A stretch of 64,000 bases of DNA from an uncultured Desulfobacter sp. GTDB lineage: Bacteria; Desulfobacterota; Desulfobacteria; Desulfobacterales; Desulfobacteraceae. The first letter of the stretch is position 1. Each line of letters begins with the position of its first letter. The position numbers were made by a program, and so were the translations under genes. Below are positions 5,928 to 11,751 of this stretch, in pieces. The notes under the pieces were generated by a model. The model did no database searches and was not told the DNA's origin. It saw only the letters and a list, made by a program, of their open reading frames with translations. The stretch is taken from contig OY762069.1 of the NCBI GenBank assembly GCA_963665095.1, forward strand, positions 4,384,001 to 4,448,000, written 5' to 3'.

Positions 5928-6079
5928 GTGCCTGAACAAAAAACCCGTGTTTGGTGTTTGGACGCAAAGTTGCCCAGATGCAAGGCGCAAGCAAAGCTGC
6001 AACCGGAGCGTACTTCAGTACGTGAGGATTGCAGCTTTGTGCAGCAACGCCGCAGATGGGTGACTTTGCGTTCAAACAC
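5928..6079. mobile_element. MITE-like element containing structured repeat copy 1 (core 5954-6079)
   Basis: Imperfect inverted ends GTGCCTGAAC / GTTCAAACAC, TAATTA on both sides (5922-5927, 6080-6085), nested internal stems, no credible coding content. Confidence 0.65.
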
Positions 6080-6121
6080 TAATTAAACCGCTTCAAATCA
6101 TTAAGAGAGGATCTGTTTTAA

Positions 6122-9100
6122 GTGAAATCCAAAGCCCTTGAAGTCAACCTTTCCGATACTCGGGCAGACGTTGCCATTGATGAACGGTACCAGCTGCTTG
6201 TCTCCTTTTTTAAAGGGTATGTAGGTATTGTCAACCGGCTGGAAACCTTTCTAAAGGAGCTGTCCCACCCCTACCGGAACTGGGGATTTATTGTCAGTGA
6301 AGCCCGGCACTTCTCCCTGCACTATTTTCACCTGTACAGCACCGAAACAGACGGGCGCCGTGCCCTGGAACTGTTCTGCGATATTTTTACCGCAGCGTTT
6401 GAATCTGTGAATGACCCTGAAATTAAGACCAATGCGGCAGATAACCTCATGCTGGTTTTGCATACCATTGCAAAGGCCGGAGAAGACGGTTTAACTGTGT
6501 TTAAACCGACAATGATCAAGGAGGTAGAAAGGATCTGCCGGTTTGAGGATCCTGATTTTTTCTATTTTGTCTGCGCCTATTACCAGCCCGACAGCCTGGT
6601 AAAACAGATGGCGGCAAAAGAAGTTTCTCTGACAGATAAAGAACTGCTGCCCTGCCTGAACACCTTTTTAATTCGCTATTTTGACACCTCTTTCTCCTTC
6701 TGGCTTGCCCAGGACGATCCGTTAGCGTGGATGAAAGATAATATCAATGACTGGCGCTTAAGTTCAGACATGCTGGCACTTTTAGACCAGGTTTCCCACA
6801 CCCGGATCAGTAACCAGCAGCAACAGCTGGAACAGATCAGGGCCCTGCCGGATGACGCAAAAAAAACCACTGCCCTGACAGCGCTTACCGGTCACAGGGA
6901 GTTTATTAAAAAATTCAGAGATATGCCCCGGCAGATTCTCAATCTGGCCCGGAAACAGACCTCAGGGAAGTTTTTTAAACTGACTTTTCTGTTTTACATT
7001 ATCCATGCTCCGGGACTCTCCATTATCCACAGGGAAGCGCTGGGGGATATCCACCGGACACTGATCACGCTGATCGGTGAACAGGATTATAAAAAAGATA
7101 TGGCCATTGTGGACCAGACCTTTGCCCTTCTCAAGGAGCATAAGGGACGGTATCCGGCCACCGTACTGGAAGTGATCCATAAAATCGGGGATGCTGTTTA
7201 CAATACCGATGAAATTGAATCCATCAACCACTTCATTGACCGGTCCGTGGACCATGGTTTCCAGTTTCCCGATATCCGGGGGACAGGAGAGGACTGGCAG
7301 ATCAAGTGCAATGTGGCCCATGTCAAAAATATCCGGGTCTTTCTCACCCTGGTGGGCAGGCACCCCAAAAAGTCCAAGCGCCTGCTCTCCGCTCTGATAA
7401 CCTCCCTTGCCGTGGGGGGCGTGTTCATCCGGGATACGGACCTGTTTCCACGGGATATTACCCGGTTCTTAAATGCAGATATTGCCCCGGTATATAACCT
7501 GGTTAAACAGCTGGCACGCCTTCTGCCGGCATTCTTTAATGAAATCGGCGCAGAAGGTGAGCTCAGGGATATTTCCACCCGGCTGGATGAGTCTGTATTC
7601 CGCCGGGACAAGCTGATCCATTTTCTTCGCAAGCAGTGCCATGTGGAAAGTTCCTCCAGGATTGTCGAATTTATCCGGGAGGTAATGATGTTCTGGAAAA
7701 CCCTGGATAAATCACCCCTTAAGCCGTACCTGCCGCCGTCAATTTATAATGCCACAGAAACCCGCGGCCGTTACATTGACGGCCCTCATGCTGTTTTCCA
7801 GGCCCTGGCCTACCGCAAGCTCGAAACCCCGGCAGATTTCCTGGCTGCATCCAGAGCAGACATCGACCAGATCATTGACAAGGTGGACAGTGCAGACGAC
7901 CTTGACAAGGAAAGGGCAAAACTGATCATCCGCTTCCACGCGCTTCTCAACGAGAAATACGGCATCGACAACCTGGATCTTGGCACCTATATCAAAGCCC
8001 ATATGGGCCAGGGCCTGCCCGACCCCAAAGATGTTATCCATGCCCTGGCAGAACCGGAGCTGGAAACCCGCATCGGAGGCCTTCTGGCCTATATGAACGA
8101 ACTCAAACAGATTATTTTATCCAAAGAGCAGTTTATGGTAAATGAATCCATCTACCACAAACGCCATATTGCCGTGGATATTCCATCCATGTACGGGTCT
8201 TACAGTGAGGCCAAATTTGATGCGCTAGGCATGACCTTAAGAATTGAAAGCGTGGTTAACGTCATGTTTGAAGACCTGATCAACAGCATTGACCTGCGGC
8301 TGATCACCAAGCCCACCTTTGTAAGGATCTTCTCCATATTAAAGCTGTTCCGCCAGGCCCTTGCCCTGGACGGCATTGTGTCCAACAAGCTGGATATCCA
8401 GATGGACTTTTTAAAATACGCCATCAACATCACCACCTGCTCCTTTACCCAGTATCTGGACATATTCAAGGGCTTTACAAGGGCTGTGGCAGACGCGGTG
8501 AACGATCACTTCAACAACCTGCACTCTTTAAACCTTGTCAACCTGGACAGCCGCATCGGCAGGGAAAATATCCTCGAAAAATTCCTGCCTGACGGATACA
8601 ATCCGGCAAAAACAGCCGCAGCCAATACCCCCGCATCCCGGAAAATGGCAAAAAAAATGGACCAGCGGGTGGCGGATATTTTTTTCAGGGACCGCATTGT
8701 CACATCCCTGGGACTTCAGCAGCTGGATGTATTCTTACATAAAATTTTGAATACACTGTTCCGCCAGTCCGAACGCCTCAGCCAGGATGAATTGTCCGCA
8801 CTTCTTAACTACGACCCCAAGGCAGCCGTCTCCACCATTGACGCCAGAGAGCTGTTCAGCCACAACATCATTTACCTGGGCAACAAGGGCTTGAACCTGA
8901 TCAAGCTCAAACAGATGGGAATCAAGGTGCCCAACGGGTTTATCATCACCACCGAGGTATTTAAATGTCTGGACCTCATTGACTCGTATATTCCGGCATC
9001 CGTGAACTTCCGCCAGCTTGTCTCCCATATGATTGAACAGCTTGAAGCAGTGGAAGGCGCCAAATTCGGCGATCCTGAGAATCCGCTGCTGCTGTCGGTA

Positions 9101-10351
9101 CGATCAGGCTCGTCCATCTCCCAGCCTGGTATGCTGGACTCTTTTTTAAATGTGGGCATCAACGAACAGATTGCCGCACGCATGGCCGAGACCAGCGGCA
9201 ACCCCTGGTTTGCCTGGGATTCCTACCGCAGGTTCATTCAGGCCTACGGCATGGTATTCGGTATCCAGAGAGACCGGTTTGACGCAATTATCAAGTCGTT
9301 CAAGGACAGGGCTGACATCCGGTTCAAGCGGTATTTTACAGGCGATCAGATGCGGGATGTGGCCATGGCCTACAAACAGCTGCTGGTGGATGAAGGCATT
9401 GAACTGATTGAAAATCCCATGGATCAGCTATTTTTATCCATTAAAAAAGTGTTTGCATCCTGGAACTCAAAACGGGCCATAAACTACAGAAAGATCATGG
9501 GAATCTCCCATGACTGGGGCACGGCAGTCACGGTGCAGGCCATGGTATTCGGAAACCGCTGCCGGGAATCCGGATCCGGAGTTATCTTCACCCACAGCCC
9601 CAAACTGCCCGGAGACACCATCCGGCTCTGGGGAGATTTTACCATTGGCAATCAGGGGGAAGATGTGGTATCGGGTTTGGTAAAAACCCTGCCCATTTCA
9701 GAACTTCAACGGGAACTGGAAGGCAGGGATGTAAAAATCAGCCTGGAAGAACGGTTTCCACAAGTGTATGAACAGTTGAAAACCATTGTCCAGCAGCTGA
9801 TCTACGATGGAGGCTGGAATCCCCAGGAGATGGAATTTACCTTCCAGGGACAGGCCCCCGAAGATGTATTTATTCTTCAGGCAAGAGATCTGTCTTTACG
9901 AGACAGAAAAAAAATCAAGCGGTTTGACGCTGCCCCCGACAGACTTGAAAAGGCCTGCCTGGGCCAGGGCATAGGGGTTTCCGGCGGCGCCATGAGCGGC
10001 AGAATCGTGTTCACCCTGGAAGAGATCGACGGATTCAGGCGACAGGATCCTGACGCCAAGCTTATCCTGCTTCGAAATGATACAGTGCCTGACGACATTC
10101 TCGAGATTGATGCGGCTGACGGTATTTTAACGGCCCGGGGAGGGCTTACTTCCCATGCGGCTGTGGTGGCATACAATCTTGATAAAACCTGTGTGGTCGG
10201 GTGCAAAAATCTGATCTGCAACGAAGAGGCAGGGATTTGCGAACTAAACGATGTAACAATGAACACAGGGGATTTCATCAGCATTGACGGACACAAAGGT
10301 CTTGTCTATCAGGGGCAGATGAAAATCAGTGACCATTTAACCTCAATTTGA
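6122..10351 (+). CDS. PPDK-like dikinase: ~900-aa uncharacterised N-terminal region, ATP-grasp domain and phospho-His swivel domain; no C-terminal pyruvate-binding barrel
   Basis: LGNKGLNL, VPNGFIITTE, LLSVRSG, QAMVFGN, QGEDVVSG, QEMEFT, LQAR and GGLTSHAAVVA. The protein ends just after ISIDGHKGLVY. Confidence 0.85.
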   Translation: MKSKALEVNLSDTRADVAIDERYQLLVSFFKGYVGIVNRLETFLKELSHPYRNWGFIVSEARHFSLHYFHLYSTETDGRRALELFCDIFTAAFESVNDPEIKTNAADNLMLVLHTIAKAGEDGLTVFKPTMIKEVERICRFEDPDFFYFVCAYYQPDSLVKQMAAKEVSLTDKELLPCLNTFLIRYFDTSFSFWLAQDDPLAWMKDNINDWRLSSDMLALLDQVSHTRISNQQQQLEQIRALPDDAKKTTALTALTGHREFIKKFRDMPRQILNLARKQTSGKFFKLTFLFYIIHAPGLSIIHREALGDIHRTLITLIGEQDYKKDMAIVDQTFALLKEHKGRYPATVLEVIHKIGDAVYNTDEIESINHFIDRSVDHGFQFPDIRGTGEDWQIKCNVAHVKNIRVFLTLVGRHPKKSKRLLSALITSLAVGGVFIRDTDLFPRDITRFLNADIAPVYNLVKQLARLLPAFFNEIGAEGELRDISTRLDESVFRRDKLIHFLRKQCHVESSSRIVEFIREVMMFWKTLDKSPLKPYLPPSIYNATETRGRYIDGPHAVFQALAYRKLETPADFLAASRADIDQIIDKVDSADDLDKERAKLIIRFHALLNEKYGIDNLDLGTYIKAHMGQGLPDPKDVIHALAEPELETRIGGLLAYMNELKQIILSKEQFMVNESIYHKRHIAVDIPSMYGSYSEAKFDALGMTLRIESVVNVMFEDLINSIDLRLITKPTFVRIFSILKLFRQALALDGIVSNKLDIQMDFLKYAINITTCSFTQYLDIFKGFTRAVADAVNDHFNNLHSLNLVNLDSRIGRENILEKFLPDGYNPAKTAAANTPASRKMAKKMDQRVADIFFRDRIVTSLGLQQLDVFLHKILNTLFRQSERLSQDELSALLNYDPKAAVSTIDARELFSHNIIYLGNKGLNLIKLKQMGIKVPNGFIITTEVFKCLDLIDSYIPASVNFRQLVSHMIEQLEAVEGAKFGDPENPLLLSVRSGSSISQPGMLDSFLNVGINEQIAARMAETSGNPWFAWDSYRRFIQAYGMVFGIQRDRFDAIIKSFKDRADIRFKRYFTGDQMRDVAMAYKQLLVDEGIELIENPMDQLFLSIKKVFASWNSKRAINYRKIMGISHDWGTAVTVQAMVFGNRCRESGSGVIFTHSPKLPGDTIRLWGDFTIGNQGEDVVSGLVKTLPISELQRELEGRDVKISLEERFPQVYEQLKTIVQQLIYDGGWNPQEMEFTFQGQAPEDVFILQARDLSLRDRKKIKRFDAAPDRLEKACLGQGIGVSGGAMSGRIVFTLEEIDGFRRQDPDAKLILLRNDTVPDDILEIDAADGILTARGGLTSHAAVVAYNLDKTCVVGCKNLICNEEAGICELNDVTMNTGDFISIDGHKGLVYQGQMKISDHLTSI

Positions 10352-10365
10352 AAGAAGGCAAAGAT

Positions 10366-11616
10366 ATGAGTAGTGACGCATCAAAGATCCTGGGCATTAA
10401 CGGACTTGGAAGAATTGGCAAACTGACCTTATGGCATCATGCCGGCAGAAAATTCTTTGATGAAATCGTCATCAACGTGGGCAGGGAAGTGGGAACCGGT
10501 ATGGACGATCTAATCCACTATATCGAACGGGACTCCTCCTATGGCCGCCTTGACGCATTTCTGCACGGATTTCAGGCCGAACCGGTGATCACAGATATTG
10601 ATCCTGACAGTGGCACGCTGAAAGTAAACGGGGTCAATATTAAAATTCTTCGGCAGCACCGTAACCCAAAGGATATTGAATGGGCACAGAACGGTGTGGA
10701 GCTTGTGGTGGACACAACGGGTCAGTTTCTGGACCCCAACCTCGGGGCCGAAGACCCCAAAGGCGCCATCCGGGGCCATCTGGAAGCCGGTGCCAGAAAA
10801 GTGGTTGCATCCGCCCCCTTTAAGATGAAACAGGGGGCCATGATGCCGGACGATGCCGTCACCACGGTTATGGGCATCAATGACAAGGATTATGACCCGG
10901 TCCGGCACTGTCTGATTTCCAATGCATCCTGCACCACCACCTGTCTGTCGCATATGGTCAAGCCGCTGCTGGATGCCTTTGGCCCGGAACGGGTTTTATC
11001 AGCCTCCATGGCCACGGTGCATGCGGCCACAGGATCCCAGCAGGTGCTGGACCGGCTGCCCAAGACCGGAAAAACAGATTTAAGAAAAAACCGGTCTATC
11101 ATGAATAACATTATTCTGACCACCACAGGTGCAGCCAAGGCATTGCAGCTGGTGATTCCTGAAATGGCAAGCATCGGATTCATTGCAGAGTCCGTTCGTA
11201 TTCCCACCTCCACAGGATCTTTGATCATTCTGGTCATTAATCTGCAGGAGGAGCTGGACAAACCGCCGGTGCGAAGGGAGCTGATCAACCAGATCTACCA
11301 GGACACCGCCAAAAGACAGACCAACGGCTACCTGGTCTTCACCAACAAACAGAATGTGTCATCGGACATCATCGGCACCCCCAGGGCCGCAGCGGTCATT
11401 GAAGGCCATGAAACCCATACCCGGACCGCATCCATTTCCATTAATCTTGGGCAGGTGCAGGGAATTGATAAAACGGTTCTTGAAAGCATTAAGGATCATG
11501 TGGGTTCCATCCAGGTAACCCAGGCGGTTATTTACGGCTGGTATGACAATGAGATGGCATCCTATGTGAATATGCTTGGCGACAGGACAGTAACAATCGC
11601 AGAATCCATGGACTAA
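10366..11616 (+). CDS. gap: Glyceraldehyde-3-phosphate dehydrogenase, type I family, divergent
   Basis: GINGLGRIG Rossmann motif, catalytic ASCTTTCL, TTTGAAKA and WYDNE. ATG 10366 after GAAGG is preferred over TTG 10348. Confidence 0.88.
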   Translation: MSSDASKILGINGLGRIGKLTLWHHAGRKFFDEIVINVGREVGTGMDDLIHYIERDSSYGRLDAFLHGFQAEPVITDIDPDSGTLKVNGVNIKILRQHRNPKDIEWAQNGVELVVDTTGQFLDPNLGAEDPKGAIRGHLEAGARKVVASAPFKMKQGAMMPDDAVTTVMGINDKDYDPVRHCLISNASCTTTCLSHMVKPLLDAFGPERVLSASMATVHAATGSQQVLDRLPKTGKTDLRKNRSIMNNIILTTTGAAKALQLVIPEMASIGFIAESVRIPTSTGSLIILVINLQEELDKPPVRRELINQIYQDTAKRQTNGYLVFTNKQNVSSDIIGTPRAAAVIEGHETHTRTASISINLGQVQGIDKTVLESIKDHVGSIQVTQAVIYGWYDNEMASYVNMLGDRTVTIAESMD

Positions 11617-11742
11617 GTTTTTGGGCGAAAACTTACCCACCTGCGGCGTTGCTGCGGGAGTTTGTAATCCTCACAACCTGAAGGCTGCTCCGGTTACAAA
11701 CTCCCTTGCGCCTTGCATCTGGGCAAGTTTTCGCCCAAAAAC
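11617..11742 (-). repeat. Structured palindromic repeat copy 2, inverted relative to copy 1
   Basis: The reverse complement shares the blocks TTGCCCAGATGCAAGGCGCAAG, AACCGGAGC, CTTCAG, GTGAGGATT and GCAGCAACGCCGCAG with 5954-6079. 23-bp outer inverted repeat with one mismatch. Confidence 0.85.
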
Positions 11743-11751
11743 CTCAATATT

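Follow-up and report, generated by a model that had tools for sequence, protein, structure and literature searches.

The locus and its two proteins

The window, i.e. the whole analysed stretch of 64,000 nucleotides from an uncultured Desulfobacter sp. (contig OY762069.1), contains a tandem of two genes that encode a dikinase-like protein (here DK) and a long glyceraldehyde-3-phosphate dehydrogenase (GAPDH; gene gapX, protein GapX). Open reading frame (ORF) calling assigns a GTG start to DK and an ATG start to gapX, with 14 bp between the genes. An in-frame TTG at 10348, which overlaps the DK stop (TTGA), offers an alternative gapX start and a product of 422 aa; the initial annotation had described both the short gap and this overlap, and the ORF coordinates bear it out. 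The ATG is the likelier start because in close Desulfobacter loci GapX comprises 416-417 aa and begins 16-26 bp past the DK stop. Named relatives at 77-80% identity belong to Desulfobacter species and one Desulfobacterales metagenome-assembled genome. Pfam detects PPDK_N and the PEP-utilizers mobile domain, without PEP-utilizers_C, in DK and Gp_dh_N together with Gp_dh_C in GapX. The pair is composed as follows (PPDK, pyruvate phosphate dikinase):

6122..10351, + strand: DK, gene of a barrel-less PPDK-like dikinase of 1409 aa (ORF, domain and profile matches)
6122..7258, + strand: DK residues 1-379, solenoid-like helical region by prediction, with weak conservation outside the N-terminal SxALxxNL and ELxHP motifs
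7259..8305, + strand: DK residues 380-728, conserved core and candidate acceptor site (invariant residues; K680-H682 on a predicted beta-hairpin)
8873..9916, + strand: DK residues ~918-1265, PPDK-type ATP-grasp domain (Pfam, PPDK alignment, invariant residues)
9956..10330, + strand: DK residues ~1279-1403, phospho-His swivel domain, GGLTSHAA with H1345 and T1343 (Pfam, alignment)
10366..11616, + strand: gapX, long class I GAPDH of 416 aa with extra insertions (domains; catalytic C189 and H219 kept, Asp32 replaced by NxGR)

The alignment of DK with PPDK (C. symbiosum, 1KBL; E 2.4e-91) spans DK residues 918-1403 and covers the nucleotide-binding domain as well as the swivel domain. The equivalents of PPDK Lys22, Arg92, Arg135, Glu323, Gln335, Arg337, Thr453 and His455 are kept; in all 178 aligned homologues DK K922, R994, R1036, R1037, D1181, E1238, Q1253 and R1255 are invariant, and H1345 in the TSH motif of the swivel domain is found in 175 of them, the other three having gaps. 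For the catalytic PPDK residues besides Lys22 we assume their familiar roles, including that of Arg135 as phosphate (Pi) site. The role of Lys22 is described in the available part of PMC4844700. The TIM barrel for phosphoenolpyruvate (PEP) and pyruvate (PF02896) was not found in DK, which ends about 6 residues past the swivel alignment. With 397.9 bits against the PPDK model TIGR01828 (cut-off 843) and 299.3 bits against NF004531 (cut-off 456), a short PPDK model of 534 positions and the second-best NCBIfam match, DK stays below both cut-offs; judged by its model length NF004531 probably represents the VadK family. No DK relative longer than 2466 aa occurs among 5817 candidates, which is weak evidence. 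DK retains T1343 (window 10148-10150), the residue that serves as phosphorylation target of the PPDK regulatory protein; the gene of this protein (G000, C1:1567542-1568309) is located beside the canonical ppdk.

The N-terminal region of about 900 residues is the peculiar part of DK. Residues 1-905 have no sequence match in Pfam, NCBIfam or PDB. Profiles built from the new domain were equally without result against PDB, NCBIfam and phosphoglycerate kinase (PGK), and the ESM Atlas yielded nothing but its own clusters. In the predicted structure (pLDDT 84.7) this region is helical nearly throughout, apart from a single beta-hairpin at 674-695, and the core 380-728 predicted alone reaches pLDDT 89.9. 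For residues 1-905 neither Foldseek (HEAT solenoids at TM of at most 0.18) nor VIA (best Z 9.2, rmsd 3.1, 93 aligned residues, a helical bundle) gave a clear match; with the core, Foldseek had no match at E 0.001 and VIA reached at best Z 7.9 with three-helix bundles (rmsd 3.0, 74 aligned). A new fold is unproven since residues ~380-616 were barely covered in these searches. A rifampin-binding-like domain is absent from the matches listed in the sequence and fold searches of DK. Conservation of the core (residues 421-540, 0.60) exceeds that of the ATP-grasp domain (0.49). Fourteen core residues, mostly Arg, Lys, His and Asp, are invariant in 178 of 178 homologues (H400, D438, D440, E478, R482, R503, K504, H507, K680, R681, H682, S689, Y691 and R707); among 48 full-length representatives with identities down to 26%, 44-48 retain them. 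The Arg/Lys/His cluster among them looks like an anion site, and its basic residues are probably gathered in one pocket.

GapX is, judged by its sequence, a catalytically complete class I phosphorylating GAPDH. It scores 321.5 bits against TIGR01534, just under the cut-off of 367, but only 173.9 bits against the ArsJ-associated GAPDH (cut-off 450) and 123.8 bits against Epd (cut-off 531). The catalytic Cys and His and the residues of the Ps and Pi phosphate sites are retained: C189, H219, T222, R278, T254 and N395 (the Asn313 equivalent) are kept in 161 of 161 homologues, where position 241 is always Lys or Arg and position 255 is Gly in 141 and Asn in 20. Asp32 is replaced by an N-x-G-R motif, with G39 and R40 in all 161 sequences, whereas the neighbouring gapA genes keep Asn-Asp at this site. 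Absence of Asp32 goes along with use of NADP(H), and GapX probably uses this coenzyme. Conserved insertions such as FxDP (121-124) and APFK (150-153) are absent from gapA. No GAPDH match other than GapX turned up in the closed genomes G026 and G064, so GapX is likely to be a working GAPDH.

Co-inheritance and genomic context

The distribution of both genes was followed in 401 genomes of the phylum, among which related ones are not independent. Residues 251-900 of DK were matched in 131 genomes; six weak matches (E 1e-5 to 1e-8), namely five from the sister family f61 and a 455-aa partial protein in G077, were dropped and counted as having neither gene, which left 125. GapX was called at E of at most 1e-70 in 127 genomes, and no match fell between 1e-104 and 1e-70. 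Both genes are present in 124 genomes and neither in 273; DK alone occurs once, as a fragment, and gapX alone three times. This pairing is far beyond chance. It also holds inside families of mixed presence, where each gene is found in 8 of 12 (f11) and 2 of 6 (f19) genomes, and in G410 both are missing, the flanks being joined over ~200 bp, while the congeners G381 and G411 keep both. Among the 124 genomes the genes are tandem in 73, convergent in 26 (99 adjacent pairs) and apart or on different contigs in 25. All 62 metagenome loci with enough DNA (80 loci in total) are tandem, and the median spacing is 56 bp in 113 tandem loci. Conservation of the gene neighbourhood, which the initial annotation had named as a check, is thus found, and a conserved functional link between DK and gapX is supported. 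The bacteria that inherit both genes jointly include sulfate reducers and syntrophs. Further DK relatives are named from Magnetococcus marinus, Thermodesulfovibrio, Bacteroidales, Cloacimonadota, Marinimicrobia, Myxococcota and Thermoleophilia, and GapX relatives from Syntrophus, Smithella and Syntrophorhabdus.

The mirror-tree correlation of DK with GapX (r 0.83-0.94) lacks specificity, for the tree of gapA follows that of DK just as closely (r 0.87-0.93); a pgk control was flawed by mis-called ORFs. Inter-protein covariation, computed on 161 pairs with an effective number of 101, yielded noise (just 9 local pairs among the top 200), and a complex prediction of DK 300-885 with GapX 6-416, excluding DK 1-299 and the kinase half, scored 0.00, an outcome of “no answer” that carries no weight either way.

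Several deviating arrangements were observed. Two loci have gapX without DK (L107 in G256 and L108 in G103, the latter copy with an internal stop), and the closed genome G097 contains two gapX copies with equal scores (C1:505503 and C1:1778707). In G194 (loci L095 and L096), a member of the window's own family, a DK of only 38% identity lies behind gapA and is separated from gapX by 445 kb, a hint that the module has a history of its own. A candidate DK-GAPDH fusion (P0047, 1588 aa), which stops after the catalytic Cys, was rejected; it is read as a deletion or assembly chimera because the end of DK and the start of GapX are missing. Whole-length DK homologues of ~1500 aa with degenerate or altered motifs in the N-terminal domain constitute the sister family f61 (L094:4179-8720, L105:563-5029, L109:3457-7941), whose genes are neighbours not of gapX but of GAF-sigma54 activators or a B12 radical SAM gene.

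The wider neighbourhood was counted in 31 hand-picked loci. Its recurrent order is rapZ-EIIA-GNAT-gapA-DK-gapX-pgk-tpi-secG; gapA stands directly before DK in 16 loci, pgk directly after gapX in 8, and gapA or pgk is present in 21. Where the operon is broken, DK remains behind gapA in four of five fetched cases. In the window itself neither pgk nor tpi adjoins the pair. The initial annotation had observed this correctly for the locus, but as an argument it does not stand: the same genome keeps rapZ-EIIA-gapA-tpi-secG at C1:1664668-1668059 with pgk and DK-gapX elsewhere, many relatives have the pair located inside gapA-pgk-tpi-secG, and PGK is present in 395 of 401 genomes. DK as replacement of PGK is thereby ruled out. 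PGK is kept in 123 of the 124 genomes with the pair, and the exception (G381), once a candidate for a genome with DK but without PGK, is explained by an assembly break since the neighbour gene of pgk lies at the very edge of its contig, at base 1. In some genomes (G096, G159, G239, G241, G285, G287 and others) the best PGK match is ~1e-80 instead of ~1e-150, which suggests a second PGK type or partial genes. PPDK is not replaced either: the window genome has a canonical ppdk with its regulatory protein separate from DK, and five small closed genomes each possess another barrel-containing PEP enzyme. From the retention of PGK and the frequent position of the pair within the gapA-pgk-tpi-secG operon it follows that DK supplements the GAPDH/PGK step and does not take the place of PGK.

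The immediate neighbours in the window, a divergent PAS-GGDEF-EAL gene and a convergent REC-DUF3369-HD gene, are signalling genes on the other strand and unrelated. Around the pair two repeats were found:

5951..6085, no strand assigned: palindromic dispersed repeat of ~130 bp upstream of DK (69 blastn matches of at least 90 nt in the genome)
11617..11745, no strand assigned: second copy of this repeat family directly after the gapX stop, inverted, 76% identical to the upstream copy (48 blastn matches of at least 90 nt)

These inverted copies flank DK-gapX on both sides, and long hairpins are predicted for them. The upstream repeat is not specific to the DK-gapX module; the copy after gapX could act as terminator hairpin.

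A putative phosphoglycerate dikinase and its alternatives

We tentatively propose, at slightly less than even confidence, that DK is a 3-phosphoglycerate (3-PG), phosphate dikinase that feeds the probably NADP(H)-linked GapX in parallel to PGK. The initial annotation had raised this reaction as one hypothesis, and it is still the best guess, though as a parallel branch. The proposal draws on the co-inheritance of both genes, their location in the gap-pgk-tpi operon, the intact ATP-grasp domain and swivel His of DK and the catalytically complete GapX; in addition, swapped third domains of related dikinases bind acceptors, the DK core is cationic and conserved, and its partner is likely an NADP-GAPDH of a mainly gluconeogenic type. 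Small-molecule acceptors are described for such domains in rifampin phosphotransferase (RPH; PMC4844700, in part) and HpeHI (PMC12167813, in part), the invariant cations of the DK core would fit a phospho-carboxylate acceptor, and NADP-GAPDHs that occur beside NAD-GAPDHs are described as mainly gluconeogenic in the available parts of PMC4518329 and PMC12663938. ATP and Pi would load His1345 with release of AMP and pyrophosphate (PPi), whereupon the swivel domain would swing over to the new domain; 3-PG, bound there by the Arg/Lys/His cluster, would receive the phosphoryl group on its carboxylate. The overall step would be 3-PG + ATP + Pi -> 1,3-bisphosphoglycerate (1,3-BPG) + AMP + PPi, followed by reduction of the acyl phosphate by GapX with NADPH. 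The DK step would be 11-15 kJ/mol less uphill than that of PGK, and 16-19 more with PPi hydrolysis (approximate values). Its cost of two ATP equivalents could pull gluconeogenesis at low energy charge, like PPDK beside pyruvate kinase. At high PPi and AMP the branch might run in reverse and yield ATP and NADPH, and could so recover ATP in Syntrophus aciditrophicus, for which high PPi and an AMP:ATP ratio of 5.9 are described (PMC4992975, in part). With somewhat more reserve we consider DK to be the first enzyme of this kind, i.e. a counterpart of PGK that is linked to PPi/AMP and has a new acceptor fold, which together with an NADP-linked GapX would provide anaerobes short of energy with a second and differently energised GAPDH/PGK branch; opposed to gapA and pgk of the same operon, this branch would couple NADH/NADPH exchange to the AMP and PPi pool.

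A number of observations weigh against this proposal. As PGK is retained in practically all genomes with the pair, none of them needs DK for the 1,3-BPG step, and since pgk often follows gapX directly GapX could just as well rely on PGK. In G064, with GapX as sole GAPDH, DK is split into overlapping ORFs of 651 and 794 aa (L198:2933-7100) by a frameshift or sequencing error. GapX is not the unique partner because DK stays behind gapA in broken operons and its tree tracks gapA. In the profile comparison the new domain has no similarity to PGK, the sister family f61 with the same architecture is not found beside gapX, and the NADP preference of GapX derives from a single motif. Finally, a barrel-less PPDK that acts as regulator, VadK, has been published (PMC13400623, in part).

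For this last reason a VadK-like regulatory dikinase or scaffold, close to the second hypothesis of the initial annotation, is kept as the main rival explanation, which we regard as rather unlikely. Such a protein would sense ATP, AMP and PPi via the swivel His, bind or phosphorylate GapX and/or GapA and switch the direction of the GAPDH node. VadK autophosphorylates and co-purifies with enzymes that belong to the methylcitrate cycle (PMC13400623), though the available part of this source reports no protein phosphotransfer. The short-PPDK model is the second-best NCBIfam match of DK but its cut-off is missed (299 versus 456). Retention of PGK, the location of DK between two gap genes, the predicted solenoid-like N-terminal region and the GapX-specific insertions are consistent with regulation, whereas the invariant basic cluster with its flexible KRH hairpin resembles a metabolite site rather than a protein-docking surface. 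Less probable still is that DK phosphorylates a different small molecule close to the triose-phosphate node, such as glycerate, glyceraldehyde, 2-PG, erythronate-4-P or some other acid, while GapX reduces or oxidises the matching partner. The specificity of an acceptor domain without known relative is not fixed, acceptors of swapped-domain dikinases are very varied (PMC4844700 and PMC12167813, both in part), and the existence of a sister family that lacks gapX speaks for an ability of the domain to act on different substrates; against this, GapX keeps all residues of the glyceraldehyde-3-phosphate site and is the sole GAPDH match of two genomes, and no further pathway gene travels with the pair. 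That DK and gapX are functionally unrelated and came together only by insertion in the gap-pgk-tpi operon is very improbable. Relatives share genes by descent, and the DK tree tracks gapA as well as GapX; however, both genes persist in the 25 genomes where they are separated, adjacency occurs also in the convergent layout, and joint loss of the two is seen inside families and in G410, while gapA, pgk and tpi are relocated.

About 31% of the sampled genomes (124 of 401) carry a protein of 1400 aa that databases name pyruvate phosphate dikinase but that has no pyruvate site; this part of metabolism is therefore probably wired wrongly in models of sulfate reducers and syntrophs. Should DK be a 3-PG dikinase, lower glycolysis would acquire a reaction of which no description was found in the literature searched, with bearing on the drive of gluconeogenesis or on AMP/PPi recycling in low-energy anaerobes. 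A regulatory DK would mean CP12-like or VadK-like control of GAPDH in anaerobes.

Comparison with known systems

Topic searches of the literature, covering few subscription journals, found no description of the DK-gapX pair or of a phosphoglycerate dikinase. By its sequence DK is a real and conserved variant of the swivel-His dikinases, uncharacterised within the literature searched. With PPDK (EC 2.7.9.1) it has in common the ATP-grasp and swivel domains with their catalytic residues, but it differs in the missing PEP/pyruvate barrel, the 900 extra N-terminal residues and the failure to reach TIGR01828. VadK from Mycobacterium tuberculosis (Rv1127c; PMC13400623, in part) is, like DK, a barrel-less PPDK derivative linked to enzymes of central carbon metabolism. 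It is a protein of ~50 kDa with ATP-grasp and His domains only, whereas DK with its 1409 aa adds a conserved 900-aa domain and misses the NF004531 cut-off.

Rifampin phosphotransferase, HpeHI and PigC-RedH resemble DK in combining an ATP-grasp domain and a swivel His with a separate third domain that is no barrel. The order in RPH and HpeHI is ATP-grasp, acceptor domain and His, while in DK the new domain precedes ATP-grasp and His; moreover, the ATP-grasp domain of DK is of the PPDK and not of the PEP-synthase type. For GapX, the NADP-dependent gluconeogenic GAPDH GapB of Bacillus (8WWZ) is among the top PDB matches. Both have no Asp32 and occur alongside an NAD-type gapA, but GapX is ~80 residues longer, shows NxGR in place of the GapB motif and represents a subfamily of its own that is tied to DK.

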